DNA from: a virus
Taxonomy: Duplodnaviria; Heunggongvirae; Uroviricota; Caudoviricetes
Virus record (IMG/VR): IMGVR_UViG_2734482778_000013
Location: 1-35,527 of that record
Reading direction: 5' to 3' (one strand)
Length of the DNA: 35,527 bases
The notes under the pieces: model-generated
Databases searched by the model: none
What the model saw: only the letters and a program-made list of their open reading frames with translations
Told to the model about the DNA's origin: nothing
In this document: positions 3,641-34,997 of the stretch, piece after piece
How the letters are laid out: each line of letters opens with the position of its first letter
How positions within the stretch are numbered: position 1 is the stretch's first letter
Position numbers and translations under genes: made by a program

Positions 3641-3883
3641 ATGGGCAAAGAATATAAAACTCTCATTAACAAAGCACTTGAGCGTTTTTATTTTCGCTTA
3701 AGTGCATCAGGCGCTCATGCTGAACGTGCAGCCCGTGACTCATTGACCAGAGCAATCCGGAGTCTGTATGACGTTGCTTTTTACGCTGATGATCTGGATG
3801 CACTTAACGAACTTTCCGAGCTGATCTGTGCCGCAGAATGCGGGGAACACATTGAACCGTATAAGCTGGGGAATATCGCATGA
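3641..3883 (+). CDS. Hypothetical protein
   Basis: 80-aa ORF, tight spacing in operon. Confidence 0.45.
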   Translation: MGKEYKTLINKALERFYFRLSASGAHAERAARDSLTRAIRSLYDVAFYADDLDALNELSELICAAECGEHIEPYKLGNIA

Positions 3884-3993
3884 GTATATTTATTTCGTGG
3901 CTCATTCTGATTATTTCGGTGATCTGCGCTATTGGCATTATGCGAATTATTCATTCAGTGAAAAAGATTGAGCGTTTTTTCTCTGACGAATAA
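3880..3993 (+). CDS. Candidate small hydrophobic membrane peptide (37 aa)
   Basis: ATGA start/stop overlap with upstream ORF; translation MSIFISWLILIISVICAIGIMRIIHSVKKIERFFSDE has one predicted TM helix; below ORF-track length cutoff. Confidence 0.3.
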   Translation: MSIFISWLILIISVICAIGIMRIIHSVKKIERFFSDE

Positions 3994-5273: not shown

Positions 5274-5477
5274 ATGAACAAAAAGACCTGGTTTCGCGCA
5301 TACATGTGGGCGCTGGTATGCGTCCTCGTCTCTCTCATTCTGTATGCAGGACTACTCCCCCGAATGATTTCATCAGACAGCTCCTTCCTGGTATTGCTAG
5401 GCATTTTCATTGCCATGCTGTACCCGGCAGGCGTTGTTCGCCTTTTCAGTAAGTACATCGAGGAAATCAAACAATGA
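5274..5477 (+). CDS. Small two-TM membrane protein, partner of SPFH lipoprotein
   Basis: 67 aa with two hydrophobic helices (WALVCVLVSLILYAGLL; FLVLLGIFIAMLYPAGVV); stop overlaps start of downstream gene (ATGA). Confidence 0.55.
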   Translation: MNKKTWFRAYMWALVCVLVSLILYAGLLPRMISSDSSFLVLLGIFIAMLYPAGVVRLFSKYIEEIKQ

Positions 5478-6304
5478 AGAAATTCAAACTCTTTCAGATT
5501 CTCCCGCTTTTTGCCGCCATCCTGCTGGTTGGCTGCGATCGCGTTGAGCCTGGTAATGTGGGCATCAAAGTCAACAAGCTGGGCGACGACAAAGGCGTTG
5601 GCGAAGTGGTTGGCGTTGGCCGCTACTGGACTGGCTGGAATACAGAGGTTTACATCTTCCCGACCTTCAAACAAATGAAGACCTACGATGAGCCGTTCAG
5701 CTTCCAGATGAGTGACGGCACAACCATCGGCTATCACATCGGCGTGGCTTACAAGGTTGATCCATCCAAAGTTACCACAGTGTTTCAGACCTACCGCAAA
5801 GGCGTGGATGACATTACCGACACTGACCTGCGCCAGAAGATCGCCGATGCACTCAACCGACTGGCCAGCAAAATGACCACCGATAAGTTTATCGACGGTG
5901 GTAAGTCTGAACTGCTGGATTCAGCACTTAAAGATATTCAGGAAGAGATGACCCCCATCGGCATTCAGGTCATGAGCCTCTCTTATGTCGGTAAACCGGA
6001 ATATCCGCCAACCGTTATCGACAGCATTAACGCCAAAGTCACGGCAAACCAGAAAACCCTGCAACGCGAACAGGAAGTCAAGCAACGCGAAGCAGAAGCC
6101 AACATGCTGCGCGCAGAAGCTGCCGGACAGGCTGATGCCATTCGCACGAAAGCCCAAGCCGAAGCCGATGCCATTCGTTTACGCGGTGAAGCACTGCGCC
6201 AGAACCCCGGTGTTATGGAGCTGGAAGCAATTAACAAATGGAACGGCACGCTGCCGCAATACATGACCAGTAATACCGCTGTTCCGTTTGTTCCGGTGAA
6301 GTAA
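5474..6304 (+). CDS. SPFH/band-7 (prohibitin/HflK-C-like) domain lipoprotein
   Basis: N-terminal signal peptide with lipobox LLVGC; central band-7-like region and C-terminal Ala/Glu/Gln/Arg-rich coiled-coil segment typical of HflK/HflC-type proteins. Confidence 0.7.
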   Translation: MKKFKLFQILPLFAAILLVGCDRVEPGNVGIKVNKLGDDKGVGEVVGVGRYWTGWNTEVYIFPTFKQMKTYDEPFSFQMSDGTTIGYHIGVAYKVDPSKVTTVFQTYRKGVDDITDTDLRQKIADALNRLASKMTTDKFIDGGKSELLDSALKDIQEEMTPIGIQVMSLSYVGKPEYPPTVIDSINAKVTANQKTLQREQEVKQREAEANMLRAEAAGQADAIRTKAQAEADAIRLRGEALRQNPGVMELEAINKWNGTLPQYMTSNTAVPFVPVK

Positions 6305-20086: not shown

Positions 20087-21235
20087 ATGACCTGGCCATC
20101 TGTCACAATTGAACAGTACAACACGTTCAGTAGCTCGCCGGACGGCGTGGAAAATACGCTGCTGTTTGTGGGCAATGCACAAAACAACAAAGGTAAGGTT
20201 CTGCCGGTTAATGCCAACAGCGATCTGGATGAACTGCTGGGAACGAACGCCAGCCCGCTGAAGAATTTCCTTCAGTCCGCACTGACCAATGCCGGACAGA
20301 ATGCCTTTTTCTATGTTGCCGTTCTGCCGGAAGCAGGCAGGGGCAAAGAAGCGACGCCAGCCTGCCAGGCATGGCAGAACGCCGTACTGGCGGCTCAGGA
20401 AACTGTTTCAGTTGAAGGCGCGGTGATCACCGAACCAGTCAGCACGAAGGATGACATCAACGCCATACAGGCGTTACGTCAGACCATCATCAATAAATAT
20501 CAGCGCCGCATATGGTTCATCCTGACCATCGCCGCCAACGACAACAGTAAAACCTGGGCGGAATACGTTGCCGAACTGACCACGCTACAGAAAGGCATTG
20601 CAGCTCCGCAGGTCATGCTGGTTCCGGAGATTTTTGGATTTGAACCGGGCGTTCTTGCCGGTCGTCTGTGTAACAGCGCCGTCACCATTGCTGACAGTCC
20701 GGCACGTGTGGCAACCGGGGCCCTGTCCGCACTGAAAACCACAGAACGCCCGAAAGACAGCGCAGGGCAGGCAATTGATCTCGCCACCCTGCAGGCACTG
20801 GCAGCCGCCCGCTACAGCGTGCCCATGTGGTATGCCGACTATGACGGCCTTTACTGGGCCGACGGCGTGACACTTGAGGTTGAAGGCGGGGACTACAACG
20901 TCATTGAGCATGTCCGCATTGCTGATAAGGTGGCGCGCCGCGTACGGCTGATGGCCATCCCCAAAATTGCCGATCGCTCACTGAACAGCACACCAGGCAG
21001 CATTGCCGCACATGAAACGCTGTTTGCCCGCCCGCTGCGTACCATGGCGAAATCCACGCAAATTAACGGCATCACGTTTCCGGGCGAAGTGAAATCGCCA
21101 CAAAAAGGCGATGTGTCCATCACCTGGCAGGACGAAAAGACGGTCAGCATCAGCATTGTTGTCCGCCCTTACGCCTGCCCCAAAACCATCAAAGTGGGCA
21201 TTCAGCTGGACAAATCTCTGGAGGAGAACGCATGA
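20087..21235 (+). CDS. Contractile tail sheath protein
   Basis: 382 aa from ATG 20087 with AGGAGA RBS; directly followed by tube gene with ATGA overlap. Confidence 0.8.
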   Translation: MTWPSVTIEQYNTFSSSPDGVENTLLFVGNAQNNKGKVLPVNANSDLDELLGTNASPLKNFLQSALTNAGQNAFFYVAVLPEAGRGKEATPACQAWQNAVLAAQETVSVEGAVITEPVSTKDDINAIQALRQTIINKYQRRIWFILTIAANDNSKTWAEYVAELTTLQKGIAAPQVMLVPEIFGFEPGVLAGRLCNSAVTIADSPARVATGALSALKTTERPKDSAGQAIDLATLQALAAARYSVPMWYADYDGLYWADGVTLEVEGGDYNVIEHVRIADKVARRVRLMAIPKIADRSLNSTPGSIAAHETLFARPLRTMAKSTQINGITFPGEVKSPQKGDVSITWQDEKTVSISIVVRPYACPKTIKVGIQLDKSLEENA

Positions 21236-21687
21236 CAACCCGCATTAACGGCATGGCCTTTGATGTTTATGTTGGCGGAACGGATATCCGCGTAAAAAAC
21301 ATTTCGCTGGATATCAGCGACGAAAGCGCCGTGGCCAAAACCCGTGGCATCCCTGACGGCAAACTGCGCGGCCCCGTCAGTGCCGAAGGTGAAATCGAAA
21401 TGAGCACCCGCAGTTTTAACCAGCTCGGGGAAGCGGCCGCTCAGGCGGGATCGTGGCGTGACCTGCCATCAATGGATTTTGTGTTCTACGCCAACACAGG
21501 CACCGAAGAAATCCGCGTTGAAGTCTTCGGATGTGAGCTGATGCTTTCGAACCTGTTAAGCATTGACACCGAGAGCGCGGATCTGACCACGCACAAAATC
21601 AAGTACGTGGTGGCAAGCCCTGACTTTGTACGTATCAACGGCGTGCCCGTTCTCTCAGAGAACGACGTGCGCGGGCTGATGGGGTGA
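21232..21687 (+). CDS. Tail tube protein
   Basis: 151 aa; position immediately after sheath. Confidence 0.75.
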   Translation: MTTRINGMAFDVYVGGTDIRVKNISLDISDESAVAKTRGIPDGKLRGPVSAEGEIEMSTRSFNQLGEAAAQAGSWRDLPSMDFVFYANTGTEEIRVEVFGCELMLSNLLSIDTESADLTTHKIKYVVASPDFVRINGVPVLSENDVRGLMG

Positions 21688-21690
21688 ACC

Positions 21691-21987
21691 ATGCAGGAGC
21701 ATGAGCGCACCATTATCACCCTGGGCATTCTGGGCGGAATCGCTGCTGCAAGTCGGGTGCTGGCTGGCGCAGAGCCGATTACGTTGCGGTTGTTTGTGGG
21801 CCGAACCCTGCTGGGGAGCGCGCTGGGGGTTTCTGCCGCCGCCCTGCTGGTTCGTTACCCGAACCTTGACCCACTGGCCATTGCCGGCGCAGGTACCGCA
21901 ATGGGCGTTGCCGGTTACCAGATTGTGGAAATCTTCCTGCGCCACATGCGTCGGAAGCTGGACGAAAAAGAGAACAAAGAGGAGTAA
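21691..21987 (+). CDS. Holin (class I-like, three predicted TM helices)
   Basis: 98 aa with three hydrophobic segments and a charged C-terminus RHMRRKLDEKENKEE; immediately upstream of endolysin. Confidence 0.7.
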   Translation: MQEHERTIITLGILGGIAAASRVLAGAEPITLRLFVGRTLLGSALGVSAAALLVRYPNLDPLAIAGAGTAMGVAGYQIVEIFLRHMRRKLDEKENKEE

Positions 21988-21992
21988 CCGCA

Positions 21993-22076
21993 ATGCAGTC
22001 CCGCAGGGATCAGAAAGCCGCTGCCATTGTCTGGAAAATTATCCGGGCGTTGTGGCGCTGGTTGCGTAAACCTTAA
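21993..22076 (+). CDS. Candidate 27-aa basic peptide between holin and endolysin
   Basis: GGAG RBS 8 nt upstream; MQSRRDQKAAAIVWKIIRALWRWLRKP; below ORF-track cutoff. Confidence 0.25.
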   Translation: MQSRRDQKAAAIVWKIIRALWRWLRKP

Positions 22077-22096
22077 CAACCCCGTAAGGAGCAAAA

Positions 22097-22438
22097 ATGA
22101 AACTCTCCGATAAGCAACAACAATTTACCGTCATGATCGGAAAACTCATCCAGTTTGCCCATCAGCGCGGTTATGGCCTGACGTTCGGTGAGGCGTACCG
22201 CACGCCAGAACAGGCAAAACTCAACGCACAAAAGGGATCAGGCATCGCCAATAGTCTGCACTGTCAGCGACTGGCGGTGGACTTTAATCTGTTTATTAAC
22301 GGTGAATACCAGACCCGCACAGAGGCTTACCGCGAACTGGGCGAGTACTGGGAATCCCTTGGCGGTTCATGGGGCGGTCGTTTTAAAAACCGCCCGGATG
22401 GCAATCATTTCAGCCTTGAGCACGACGGCGTGCGCTGA
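22097..22438 (+). CDS. Endolysin, peptidase M15 family (zinc L-alanyl-D-glutamate/D-Ala-D-Ala peptidase-like)
   Basis: Metal-ligand motifs SLHCQRLAVDF and DGNHFSLEH; AAGGAG RBS; adjacent to holin. Confidence 0.75.
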   Translation: MKLSDKQQQFTVMIGKLIQFAHQRGYGLTFGEAYRTPEQAKLNAQKGSGIANSLHCQRLAVDFNLFINGEYQTRTEAYRELGEYWESLGGSWGGRFKNRPDGNHFSLEHDGVR

Positions 22439-22445
22439 TTTTACG

Positions 22446-22480
22446 CTTAATAAGCCTTCCTGCAGGCTTATTAAGCCCTC
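22446..22480 (+). terminator. Hairpin after endolysin gene (possible terminator)
   Basis: 11-bp perfect stem CTTAATAAGCC / GGCTTATTAAG followed by a T-rich tract. Confidence 0.4.
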
Positions 22481-22505
22481 TTATTCTTGACTTTAAAAGG
22501 AAATA

Positions 22506-22796
22506 ATGATGAACGATAAAAACACCCAGACTACCGCAGAAAACGCCATCACTTTACAGGTCGGTGAACATGAGCTGACGTTTATCCCGACCGTTAAAGC
22601 CTACAACGAACTACAGAACGACTTCATGCCGGATAACAAAATCGCGCCGCTGAAAAACTACCTGCGCCGCATCGTGATTAAAGAGCACCGCGATCTGTTG
22701 AACCAGTTGCTGGAAAAACCGGGAATGCCGGCCAGTCTGGCAACTGCCGTGAATAACGAGTTTGTGCCGGAAGTGGAAATCACCGTAAAAAAATAA
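22506..22796 (+). CDS. Tail assembly chaperone (P2 gpE-like position)
   Basis: 96 aa located between tube/lysis genes and tape measure gene; ends at slippery A7 tract. Confidence 0.6.
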   Translation: MMNDKNTQTTAENAITLQVGEHELTFIPTVKAYNELQNDFMPDNKIAPLKNYLRRIVIKEHRDLLNQLLEKPGMPASLATAVNNEFVPEVEITVKK

Positions 22797-22984
22797 AAAG
22801 CCATCTGGGGGCCATTGATCGCAATGACCTTACCCGGATGCTGATCCTGCGCCGCCACTGGCTGCCCGGCGAGGATGACTCGCCGCAGTCACTGGCTGCC
22901 GCCGTCTGGCTGGATAACCACTACTGGGAAAATATGAGCATCGCCGTCAATAACGGCATTATCCGTGCTTTTAAGGGATCGTAA
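22506..22984 (+). CDS. Tail assembly chaperone -1 frameshift fusion product (gpE+E'-like)
   Basis: Slippery heptamer A AAA AAA at 22787-22793 directly before the 0-frame stop; -1 frame is open for 63 codons and terminates at 22982-22984, overlapping the tape measure ATG. Confidence 0.55.
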
Positions 22985-25080
22985 TGTCACAACAGCGCCT
23001 TGAATTACTTCTTGAACTGACAGACCGCCTGACAAGGCCGTTGCGTGCAGCCGGGCGACAGGTTCAGGGATTTGCTGCAACAAGTCGGGGAGCCTTTCGG
23101 GACATTGCTACCGGGGGCGCTGCGCTTTGGGGAGTGGGGGCAGCCATTCAGGGGGCACTGATGCCAGCCATTGAAATGGACAGGGCGCTCGGTGAGGTGA
23201 AATCACTGGGCGTCGCAGAGTCCGGATTGCGTAAACTCAGCCGCGCCGCCGTTGATTTCACTATGGAATACGGCGGGGCTGCGCAGGATTTTGTGCGTGC
23301 TTCTTACGACATCCAGTCAGCCATTGCCGGGTTAACTGACGATGAGCTGTCCCGCTTCACCACCGCATCAGCAACGGTGGCAGCAGCAACCAAATCCAGC
23401 AGCCAGACCATTACCGCCTACATGGGCACCATGTACGGCATCTTTAAAGACCAGGCTGATGCCATGGGAAAAAGCAAATGGGTGGAGCAGGTCGCCGGGC
23501 AAACCGCCACCGCCGTACAAATGTTTAAAACAACCGGCGATAACATGTCAGCGGCGTTCACCACGCTGGGTGCCAGTGCAAAAGCGGCCGGTATTGATGC
23601 GGCTGAACAGTTCGCCGTGCTGGGACAACTGCAGGCCACCATGAGTGGCAGCGAGGCCGGGACAAAGTACAAGGCATTTCTTGCCGCAGTAGGCAGCGCC
23701 CAGAAAAAGCTGGGGCTTAATTTCGTGAATAAAGACGGCACGATGAAAAGTGTTGTCGAGATCATGAAACTTATCAGGGGTAAATTTGGTGATCTGTCAA
23801 AAGTGGCTGATTCCGATTTGCTGAAAAGCGCCTTTGGCTCCGATGAAGCTGTGGCCATGATTAAATTACTCAATGCGGACATTGGCGGACTGGAAAAGAA
23901 TATCGCCACGCTGGGCAATATCAAAGGTATGGATAAGGCTGTCGAAATGGCACAAGCCATGGCCGATCCGTGGGAACAGGCCGCTGCTATTATTAACGGC
24001 ATTCGCATTGAAATTGGCACACAACTGTTGCCCGTTCTGTATCCATTCATCCAGAAAAGCAACGAAGGCGGTAAATCCTTTGTTGCCTGGTTGCGTCTGT
24101 ATCCAAACATCACACGTGCAATCGGCTTATTAAGCGCGGCACTTATTGGTGTTGCGGCGGTTGGCGCAACGGTCAATATCGTAATGGGGGTGGCGAAATT
24201 TATCTGGGTGGGATTACGCATAGTCTGGATGGCCGCAATCGCACCACTGAAATTAATCATCTTTCTGTATCGCGCCCTGAAAGTGGTTATGCTGGCGTTC
24301 TGTGCTACTGCCCGCATGGTCAGGGCATTATATCTGGCGATGAGTATCGCCATGGGGGCGCACAATGTCAGGGCCAAAATTCAGATTGCACTGCTGAAAC
24401 TGCAACGCGTCGGTATGTGGCTTTATTCTGCCGCACTGGGCGCTGCAGCTGTGGCCATGAAAATTTATACCGCTGTTACCGGTGGCGCAGCCGTTGCCAC
24501 TCAGCTACTTTTCAGCCCGATAACGTTAATCATCCTGGCACTGGCTGCGCTGGGCGTGGGCATTTATTTTCTGATTACCCGCTGGGATGAGATCAAAGCT
24601 GCACTGATGGATACAGCCGCTTTTCAGTGGGTAACCAGTGTCATAAAAAATATAGCTGTATGGTTCGGAAATACCTGGAAAGGCATTAAAAGCGGCTGGG
24701 ATGCCGTTATTAATTATTTTTCCACCCGCTCACCACTGGAAATATTTCAGGATTATGTCCGTCTGATTAATAAATTATTTTCAGGACTATGGCGCACAAT
24801 TATCGGTATGTTCAGCTCAGCATTCAGATGGATTGCTGACAAGCTGAATATGCTCCCGGGTATAAATATTGATGTACCAGAAATTACAGATAATAGTGAG
24901 GGTTCTGTATTAACCGGTGGAAAAGTCATTAGCGCCGGGCCAGGTGGCATTGCGGCAAAAATGCAAAATAACAGCGACAGCCAGACCACAATTGATAACT
25001 CCCGTCGCGTGGTCAATGTCAATGTGCAGGATGCGTCCCCGGCCCACCTTAATGAATGGATGGAGCTGCATGCATACTGA
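22984..25080 (+). CDS. Tail tape measure protein
   Basis: 698 aa; Ala/Gly-rich with hydrophobic central segments; follows chaperone frameshift pair. Confidence 0.85.
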   Translation: MSQQRLELLLELTDRLTRPLRAAGRQVQGFAATSRGAFRDIATGGAALWGVGAAIQGALMPAIEMDRALGEVKSLGVAESGLRKLSRAAVDFTMEYGGAAQDFVRASYDIQSAIAGLTDDELSRFTTASATVAAATKSSSQTITAYMGTMYGIFKDQADAMGKSKWVEQVAGQTATAVQMFKTTGDNMSAAFTTLGASAKAAGIDAAEQFAVLGQLQATMSGSEAGTKYKAFLAAVGSAQKKLGLNFVNKDGTMKSVVEIMKLIRGKFGDLSKVADSDLLKSAFGSDEAVAMIKLLNADIGGLEKNIATLGNIKGMDKAVEMAQAMADPWEQAAAIINGIRIEIGTQLLPVLYPFIQKSNEGGKSFVAWLRLYPNITRAIGLLSAALIGVAAVGATVNIVMGVAKFIWVGLRIVWMAAIAPLKLIIFLYRALKVVMLAFCATARMVRALYLAMSIAMGAHNVRAKIQIALLKLQRVGMWLYSAALGAAAVAMKIYTAVTGGAAVATQLLFSPITLIILALAALGVGIYFLITRWDEIKAALMDTAAFQWVTSVIKNIAVWFGNTWKGIKSGWDAVINYFSTRSPLEIFQDYVRLINKLFSGLWRTIIGMFSSAFRWIADKLNMLPGINIDVPEITDNSEGSVLTGGKVISAGPGGIAAKMQNNSDSQTTIDNSRRVVNVNVQDASPAHLNEWMELHAY

Positions 25081-34750: not shown

Positions 34751-34990
34751 ATGTGGAAAGGCCCCGAGTCAACTTTAACGTTAACCCGAGGCCCTAGCCA
34801 TACAACCTTCGCAAGTCGTAGGTTAGCGCCTCTCCGAAAAAGGAGCAAGTGCTATGTCGCAAAAATCGCTAATCGCCATCACCACACTGTGCGTGACGGC
34901 AATCCTCATCATCTGGATGTTGCAGGGTTCGCTCTGCGAGATACGGATGAGCTTCTGGGGAGCGGAGTTTGCGGCGTTCTTACAGTGTAA
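34751..34990 (+). CDS. mok: mok-like overlapping reading frame of hok locus
   Basis: 79-codon ORF starting about 100 nt upstream of the hok-like ORF in a different frame and ending 7 nt before its stop. Confidence 0.4.
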   Translation: MWKGPESTLTLTRGPSHTTFASRRLAPLRKRSKCYVAKIANRHHHTVRDGNPHHLDVAGFALRDTDELLGSGVCGVLTV

Positions 34991-34997
34991 ACCGTAA
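34854..34997 (+). CDS. hok: Hok/Gef-family type I toxin (47 aa)
   Basis: Translation MSQKSLIAITTLCVTAILIIWMLQGSLCEIRMSFWGAEFAAFLQCKP: TM helix followed by SLCEIR...AAF motif as in R1 Hok; GGAG RBS; below ORF-track cutoff. Confidence 0.75.
   Translation: MSQKSLIAITTLCVTAILIIWMLQGSLCEIRMSFWGAEFAAFLQCKP

Follow-up and report, generated by a model that had tools for sequence, protein, structure and literature searches.

How a phage of a Gram-negative host completes lysis when its genome holds no recognisable spanin is the question raised by the lysis cassette of a temperate phage genome of 35,527 nucleotides (nt), IMG/VR record IMGVR_UViG_2734482778_000013 (Caudoviricetes), the whole of which is referred to here as the window. 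In that cassette, a holin gene and an M15 endolysin gene are separated by a small open reading frame (ORF) for a short basic peptide. Approximately 13% of phages infecting Gram-negative hosts have no recognisable spanin (Kongari 2018; PMC12819732). As of January 2026, gp28 of phage phiKT was still the only proven spanin alternative, and whether spanin-less phages generally encode such "disruptins" "remains an open question" (PMC12819732). The founding disruptin, gp28, is a helical, signal-less peptide of 56 amino acids (aa) with a charge of +7, the gene for which lies between those for endolysin and holin in a coliphage that has no spanin (10.1101/515445); it can complement a defect in lambda Rz/Rz1 and resembles LL-37 in its behaviour (Holt et al.; 10.1101/515445).

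Here we show that the window belongs to a single clade, made up of Escherichia coli and Escherichia albertii prophages and one divergent sister lineage, in which the absence of Rz and Rz1 coincides strictly with the presence of a small gene, conserved as coding sequence, between holin and endolysin. The peptide that it would encode is cationic, amphipathic and rich in Trp and Arg, and is a strong candidate for a new outer-membrane-disrupting lysis peptide. By analogy with phiKT, we estimate at about 0.5 the probability that it is a functional analogue, and not a homologue, of gp28, supplying the outer-membrane disruption that was lost with Rz/Rz1.

Absence of spanin genes from the window

A preliminary description of this DNA had noted that no Rz/Rz1-like spanin pair could be found near the lysis genes, and tblastn, PHROG assignment, a lipobox scan and a hydropathy scan all confirm it. 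With 71 Rz/Rz1 ORFs from related loci as queries, tblastn gave no real match anywhere in the 35.5-kb window, and no PHROG spanin family was found among its 20 unassigned or lysis ORFs. A six-frame lipobox scan, which recovered its positive controls (the outer-membrane spanins, or o-spanins, of three phages, L001, L003 and L004, and E. coli BamD), returned just an SPFH lipoprotein and an alternate-frame artefact from the window, and no o-spanin. An inner-membrane spanin (i-spanin) would combine an N-terminal transmembrane domain (TMD) with a periplasmic domain of about 90-150 aa that is rich in coiled coil; the hydropathy scan, which took in all assigned genes as well as the unassigned ORFs, detected no protein in which such a TMD precedes a periplasmic domain. 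Nor did the lipobox and hydropathy scans find any ORF that joins a lipoprotein signal with a C-terminal TMD, as in unimolecular spanins of the T1 gp11 type. The gap between the endolysin and chaperone genes (22439-22505) is only 67 nt long and contains no Rz-like i-spanin with an overlapped o-spanin.

The preliminary description had left two options, a spanin located elsewhere or an unconventional one. The former finds no support, as nothing spanin-like was seen across the window; the latter is the better lead, although the candidate, the small ORF, which that description had mentioned without connecting it to the lost function, is not itself a spanin. An unconventional spanin hidden in another reading frame or in an accessory gene pair is very improbable, and has been largely refuted. 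The search for embedded lipobox ORFs suggested in that description gives a single alternate-frame candidate, ORF 22359-22490, which has a weak signal-like start and the motif STTAC. This motif is, however, a by-product of the invariant endolysin codons DGNHFSLEH and is found also in relatives with true spanins, and the "mature" part is unconserved, with 19 aa here versus 6 aa in the sister lineage (L087) introduced below. An accessory insert of 1.1 kb in the early region, in which a 67-aa protein with two TMDs (5274-5477) overlaps a 276-aa SPFH lipoprotein (5474-6304, PHROG 200), superficially resembles a pair of inner-membrane protein and lipoprotein. It was rejected on the grounds of its early position, of the Asp at +2 of the lipoprotein, an inner-membrane retention signal, and of its absence from the otherwise collinear and equally spanin-less prophage of E. 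coli RM10740; the insert (5274-6304) looks like a moron. Independently of its rejection here, ORF 22359-22490 could mislead automated o-spanin finders.

Spanin loss and the small gene coincide in one clade

Related cassettes were drawn from species-representative genomes, IMG/VR and metagenomes in two somewhat overlapping scans, which gave 117 and 151 loci in HP1-like context. Rz with an overlapped Rz1 follows the endolysin gene in 96 of 117 loci in the first scan and in 144 of 151 in the second, while a spacer of 100-118 nt, with neither Rz nor Rz1, characterises 20 of 117 and 7 of 151, respectively; a truncated prophage remnant, L035, makes up the rest of the first scan (1/117, versus 0/151). 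Both spanin genes are missing from each of the 27 cassettes that have the 100-118-nt spacer and the small ORF, and the sole misfit is the truncated remnant. Where the spanin pair is present, holin and endolysin genes either overlap or are directly adjacent, the exceptions being L032, with a broken holin gene, and L224, with an insertion; the corresponding insert in the window measures 109 nt.

The spanin-less loci form one clade, composed of a window-like group from E. coli and E. albertii (sheath identity to the window 87-98%) and one divergent sister lineage (the equivalent loci L065, L087 and L177), which is 77% identical to the window in the sheath, 73% in the holin and 86% in the endolysin. 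The nearest spanin-bearing relative reaches a sheath identity of only 62%, and HP1 47%. Parsimony therefore indicates that the ancestor possessed Rz/Rz1, that both genes were lost in the window clade, and that the holin-endolysin insert was gained on the same branch. With sheath identity between the sublineages at 77%, and with ratios of non-synonymous to synonymous polymorphism (pN/pS) of 0.04-0.09 for tube, holin and endolysin across clade variants (0.04 for the holin), the clade is old and under selection, and its spanin-less state is therefore stable and not a recent decay.

Late genes with a usable frame all have homologues in ESSI2_ev239 and SI7, two phages that do carry spanins, the exceptions being the small ORF and a variable tail-fibre assembly gene, and comparison with these two phages yielded no other clade-specific late gene as a replacement for the spanin. 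No second, independent spanin-less lineage was found among approximately 270 HP1-context cassettes, so that the association between the ORF and spanin loss rests on one event.

The small ORF is a conserved gene

The small basic ORF with a good ribosome-binding site that had been described between the holin and endolysin genes is present as reported (21993-22076, with GAGGAG 8 nt before the ATG), and its product in the window is MQSRRDQKAAAIVWKIIRALWRWLRKP. Its length needs correction: judging from the aligned relatives, 27 aa is the size of a nonsense-truncated allele and 35 aa that of the normal product. Codon 28 is TAA in the window versus CAA or CAG in every relative, the change in the window being CAA to TAA, and the relatives read eight codons past the codon-28 site (QQP[HR]KEQK); loci L044-L049 are otherwise identical to the window here and have no premature stop. 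The usual 35-aa product is MLSRREQKAAAIAWKIIRALWYWLRKPQQPHKEQK; its reading frame ends in a TGA that forms ATGA with the endolysin start codon (22097-22100 in window numbering).

The frame is open in 13 of 13 distinct DNA variants, the GAGGAG Shine-Dalgarno sequence is invariant in 13 of 13 spacer variants, and 26 protein variants occur among the matches listed. Both length variants, of 3 nt (L056) and 9 nt (L172), stay in frame, and amino acid replacements are conservative (R/K/H, I/V, A/V, D/E). Pairwise pN/pS of the small ORF is 0.26, with similar levels of synonymous polymorphism (pS, 0.12-0.22) across the ORF, tube, holin and endolysin; for the ORF itself pS is about 0.22. At the same location, the sister lineage carries a diverged homologue of 41 aa, MTGKKASPGILSGMRQFAVKVWQLLRSLQKLRNSMNGKTRP, the gene for which has GGAGG as its ribosome-binding site and overlaps the holin stop through GTGA and the endolysin start through ATGA; the endolysin gene of this lineage (L087) has no Shine-Dalgarno sequence of its own. 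Alignment of the 35-aa and 41-aa forms gives a score of 30, reached by 54 of 5000 shuffles, at an identity of about 29%. Because of the pN/pS of 0.26, the in-frame insertions and deletions, the ATGA overlap and the translationally coupled homologue in the sister lineage, there is good evidence, at the level of sequence, that the small ORF is a real gene conserved as coding sequence.

Among public collections, exact-sequence look-up found proteins of 35 aa in clusters, one with 50 members and one with 11, and located the most frequent 35-aa variant on at least 1000 contigs; the entries that carry a name all come from E. coli and are called "hypothetical" or "uncharacterised". In the RefSeq genome examined, that of E. 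coli RM10740, the small gene was missed by the Prokaryotic Genome Annotation Pipeline (PGAP), which constitutes an annotation gap. Fusion of holin and peptide through a -1 frameshift was considered and rejected: the peptide frame is open back into the 3' end of the holin gene, but no canonical slippery heptamer is present in the window.

A short cationic amphipathic peptide

Net charge is +7 in the 27-aa and 35-aa forms and +9 in the 41-aa form, and the hydropathy scan found neither a transmembrane segment nor a signal sequence in any of the three. A Trp/Arg-rich helical core, AAAIVWKIIRALWRWLRK, is predicted at residues ~9-26, with a hydrophobic moment of 0.61 over 18 residues (0.86 over 11) that peaks at 100-degree periodicity and is attained by 2% of shuffled sequences. 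Mean hydrophobicity of the core is 0.74 over 18 residues, and these values are comparable to those of melittin. Only one of the 295 ORFs of 20-45 aa in the six frames of the window, the small ORF itself, combines a charge of at least +6 with a moment of at least 0.55. The charge, the Trp/Leu/Arg pattern and the helical amphipathicity are common to forms just ~29% identical to each other.

The peptide belongs to no Pfam, PHROG or NCBIfam family, its sole Pfam match being to "WRW" and sub-threshold (13.9 bits versus a cutoff of 26.5), and its sequence string was absent from the literature searched. Against phiKT gp28, BLASTP produced no alignment at E ≤ 100 and the Smith-Waterman score was no better than that of shuffled sequences, which is why the peptide would be an analogue of gp28 rather than a member of its family.

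Comparison with known lysis systems

Like gp28, the peptide is small, signal-less, charged at +7 and predicted to form an amphipathic helix, and both are encoded within a lysis cassette, beside a PF04550-family holin and an endolysin, in a phage without a spanin. Of the hallmarks of the disruptin class, it shows a length below 80 aa, a charge of at least +4, the lack of a signal or TMD, a predicted amphipathic helix and a location in a spanin-less lysis cassette, while it has no homology to gp28. The class is defined by function, namely outer-membrane disruption as seen in complementation of a lambda Rz/Rz1 defect, membrane association and antimicrobial action of the synthetic peptide (10.1101/515445), and for the present peptide such a function is a prediction. 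It differs from gp28 in length (27-41 aa versus 56 aa), in being more hydrophobic (0.74 versus ~0.2-0.35) and in being Trp/Arg-rich, as well as in sequence. The carriers differ too, phiKT being a virulent podophage and the window a temperate HP1-like myophage, and spanin-bearing ancestry is visible among the relatives here but not for phiKT.

The cassettes of HP1-type phages (HP1, ESSI-2, ESSI2_ev239, SI7 and vB_YenM_324) share with the window the slot between tail tube and chaperone and the PF04550 holin, and their enterobacterial members have the same M15 endolysin at 75-81% identity; HP1 itself encodes a pinholin and a signal-anchor-release (SAR) muramidase (PMC7312051). In those cassettes, overlapping holin and endolysin genes are followed by a LysB/LysC-like pair, Rz and an overlapped Rz1, whereas the window has no Rz/Rz1, has the 109-nt insert with the small ORF, and has a hairpin at the former spanin site.

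The role expected of the peptide, to disrupt the outer membrane when lysis is completed, is that of two-component spanins such as Rz/Rz1 of lambda and LysB/LysC of P2, and in all relatives a spanin pair is encoded right after the endolysin. The window, however, encodes neither a type II inner-membrane protein with a periplasmic coiled coil nor a small outer-membrane lipoprotein, and the candidate peptide, unlike a two-component spanin, cannot span the periplasm. It is similar to LL-37, melittin and Trp/Arg-rich antimicrobial peptides in physicochemical terms, in its size and net charge, in the hydrophobic moment of its predicted helix and in how much Trp and Arg it contains, but differs from them in that it would be made inside the target cell, with no signal peptide or pro-region.

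Proposed mechanism and alternative explanations

We propose that an HP1-type cassette with a holin and a cytoplasmic M15 endolysin has lost its ancestral Rz and overlapped Rz1 and gained a small gene between holin and endolysin. The peptide would be made late, in translational coupling with the endolysin, and would enter the periplasm upon holin triggering or cross the membrane unaided. Once the endolysin has removed the peptidoglycan, the peptide could permeabilise the outer membrane much as cationic antimicrobial peptides do, thereby doing the job of the missing spanin, as gp28 does in phiKT.

Several points weigh against this proposal. Gain of the ORF and loss of Rz/Rz1 amount to effectively a single evolutionary event, and because both fall on one branch, even perfect mutual exclusivity cannot tell cause from coincidence. 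Neither BLASTP nor Smith-Waterman comparison reveals sequence similarity to gp28. Constraint on the peptide, although evident in the pN/pS of 0.26, is weaker than on the neighbouring genes, and, in a stretch of just 81 nt, the synonymous excess is marginal when taken alone. The allele in the window is nonsense-truncated and has consequently lost the ATGA coupling and the basic tail, which could impair it. The clade has no deposited isolated phage, holins in the phage collection matching at less than 60% even at best, so that lysis by these prophages is presumed. We infer translation of the ORF, the location of the peptide in the cell and its outer-membrane-disrupting activity from the features described above, and for a cytoplasmic product the peptide is very hydrophobic, such that it might act on the inner membrane instead.

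Inner-membrane action is the essence of the most credible alternative, itself unlikely, according to which the peptide would be a lysis-timing factor at the cytoplasmic face of the inner membrane, modulating the holin or serving as a depolarising trigger, with spanin loss unrelated and either tolerated or otherwise compensated. Its ORF abuts the holin gene and would be co-translated with the lysis genes, a signal-less and strongly hydrophobic amphipathic helix (0.74) would meet the inner leaflet first, and small holin-level lysis factors do exist, for instance Lcc6 of LambdaSo. Lcc6 and known antiholins nevertheless contain a TMD, which the peptide does not; the ~240 relatives that have spanins and homologous holins all manage without a factor of this kind; and a stable, selected clade of E. 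coli phages would be left without any outer-membrane-disruption function. A shade less credible, and likewise unlikely, is that these phages possess no dedicated outer-membrane disruptor, release being achieved by holin, endolysin and shear or envelope weakness, with the ORF non-functional or devoted to an unrelated role such as that of a toxin or exclusion factor. The ~13% of Gram-negative-host phages in which no spanin can be identified would fit this explanation, as would the premature stop of the window allele. Lambda Rz/Rz1 spanin mutants, moreover, still lyse when shaken in laboratory culture. Under non-shearing conditions, however, lambda lysis does require spanin function (10.1101/515445), and a non-functional or unrelated ORF is at odds with a frame that stays open, with in-frame insertions and deletions, on over 1000 contigs and in the sister lineage at 77% sheath identity, as it is with the placement of this ORF among the lysis genes, whose translational coupling it shares.

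Coupling is also the starting point of a quite improbable reading in which the ORF is a mere translated leader, tying endolysin translation to upstream ribosomes, and its peptide is functionless. The ATGA stop/start overlap with the endolysin in nearly all alleles, the missing Shine-Dalgarno sequence of the L087 endolysin gene and the relaxed constraint on the peptide relative to neighbouring genes all agree with a leader. Spanin-bearing relatives, though, couple the two genes by direct holin-endolysin overlap with no leader at all, the alleles of the window and of the L053 type have no ATGA overlap and still keep the predicted helix, substitutions in the peptide are conservative, and a charge of +7 to +9, the Trp/Leu/Arg pattern and helical amphipathicity are preserved between forms only ~29% identical. 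Outer-membrane disruption by the peptide is the reading that we prefer, and with a little less than even confidence we tentatively regard the peptide, in its forms of 27-41 aa, as a second, sequence-unrelated disruptin family, minimal and Trp/Arg-rich, which replaced a two-component spanin in a conserved HP1-type cassette.

Gene order and position of the cassette

The window holds the complete genome of a temperate, P2/HP1-like myophage, with an integrase gene at its left end followed by replication, head, tail and accessory genes. Prophages ~94-95% identical to it occur in 42 of 5,426 complete E. coli genomes; in E. coli RM10740 the integration site of the window-like prophage adjoins pheA, and E. 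albertii also carries a prophage close to the window. Coordinates of the lysis cassette and its surroundings are given in Table 1.

Table 1. Features of the lysis cassette and flanking tail genes, in window coordinates
Feature	Position	Strand	Evidence	Remark
Sheath	20087-21235		DUF2586	
Tail tube, HP1 Orf24 family	21232-21687	+	Pfam PF10772, E 3.4e-50	Upstream cassette boundary
Holin, 98 aa, Phage_holin_3_2	21691-21987	+	Pfam PF04550, E 5.5e-28; PHROG 175, E 1.3e-32	
Shine-Dalgarno sequence GAGGAG of small ORF	21979-21984	+		Inside last holin codons; 8 nt 5' of ATG
Small cationic amphipathic peptide ORF, 27 aa in window	21993-22076	+		Candidate outer-membrane disruptor
Window-specific premature stop TAA	22074-22076	+	Spacer-variant alignments	
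Leftover 3' end of putative ancestral 35-codon ORF	22077-22100	+		Contains endolysin Shine-Dalgarno sequence AAGGAG (22086-22091)
Endolysin, 113 aa, M15 (VanY-like) zinc peptidase	22097-22438	+	Peptidase_M15_4, Pfam PF13539, E 2.4e-11	
Hairpin	22445-22476	+		Perfect 13-bp inverted repeat, T-rich tail
Tail assembly chaperone, Phage_TAC_10	22506-22796	+	Pfam PF10963, E 1.2e-26	Downstream cassette boundary
DUF6890 ORF	22838-22984			
Tape measure, PhageMin_Tail	22984-25080			

The preliminary description had placed the cassette between the tube and chaperone genes, unlike in P2, and the coordinates of both flanking genes were confirmed. It had further presented this embedding in the tail module as something unusual, which does not hold: lysis genes lie between tail tube and chaperone in the archetype HP1 and in all ~240 related enterobacterial cassettes examined, and the tube gene of the window is homologous to those 5' of the holin in HP1 and all relatives. 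Gene order in HP1 is sheath, tube, hol, lys, the Rz-like orf25, orf26 and tape measure (PMC7312051), and the nearest deposited phages (ESSI2_ev239, ESSI-2, SI7/SW3/SW5 and vB_YenM_324, each a member of the Peduoviridae) fill this slot with genes for holin, endolysin and Rz (with Rz1). The position of the cassette is thus an already-known trait of the HP1-like branch, and the contrast with P2 is real.

Downstream of the cassette, in the stretch 22780-22984, the chaperone gene ends in GTA AAA AAA TAA. Because the -1 frame is open from this end onward into the DUF6890 ORF (22838-22984), DUF6890 is probably the extension of a programmed-frameshift product of the P2 E/E' type and not a separate gene.

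Holin, endolysin and downstream hairpin

The holin scores 97.6 bits against PF04550 (cutoff 25), and a transmembrane scan found two segments above the hydropathy threshold. PhiKT, the sole phage with a proven disruptin, has a holin homologous to that of the window: its gp29 (L168, 22283-22666) aligns at 29% identity over 75 aa (E 2e-11) and also matches PF04550.

The endolysin carries the H-x6-D and E-H zinc motifs, is assigned to PHROG endolysin families, and is 66-99% identical across the ~240 related cassettes. The hydropathy scan found no transmembrane segment, SAR domain or signal peptide in it, and it is a cytoplasmic enzyme. A further 53 loci (including L273-L320) have an M15 endolysin mostly ~65% identical to that of the window (range 46-80%) in a quite different context, with no HP1-like tube, chaperone, PF04550 holin or Rz/Rz1 nearby.

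In the endolysin-chaperone gap, the site of Rz/Rz1 in relatives, the hairpin folds as RNA at -20.7 kcal/mol (z -4.3), and it is retained in the sister lineage (L065/L087), where both arms have changed. Termination or attenuation between the lysis and chaperone/tape-measure genes is a possible role for it, as is stabilisation of an mRNA 3' end. A search of the spacers against Rfam gave no match at E ≤ 1.

Two other small ORFs of the window were noted. Near the right end of the prophage lies a 47-aa ORF for a Hok/Gef-like membrane toxin (34854-34997), the RM10740 homologue of which is annotated by PGAP as "Hok/Gef family protein". In the early region, in a stretch collinear with RM10740, a 37-aa ORF (3880-3993) encodes nearly nothing apart from one hydrophobic transmembrane segment (MSIFISWLILIISVICAIG...).

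Significance

A spanin-less variant of the HP1-type cassette with a conserved, translationally coupled cationic peptide was undescribed in the literature searched. The clade offers a clean natural experiment, in which ~240 relatives with holin, endolysin, Rz and Rz1 can be set against one clade with holin, peptide and endolysin and no other relevant change in the late genes, and three natural alleles, of 27, 35 and 41 aa, exist for comparison. If the proposed function is correct, a very short natural peptide would be added to the outer-membrane-active antimicrobial leads, and a search rule would follow for small cationic amphipathic ORFs that are translationally coupled in cassettes with PF04550-type holins. 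This would also be the first swap of a spanin for a disruptin to be directly visible among close, gene-for-gene relatives, in a prophage clade widespread in E. coli and E. albertii, and it would mean that disruptins arise repeatedly and can displace spanins.

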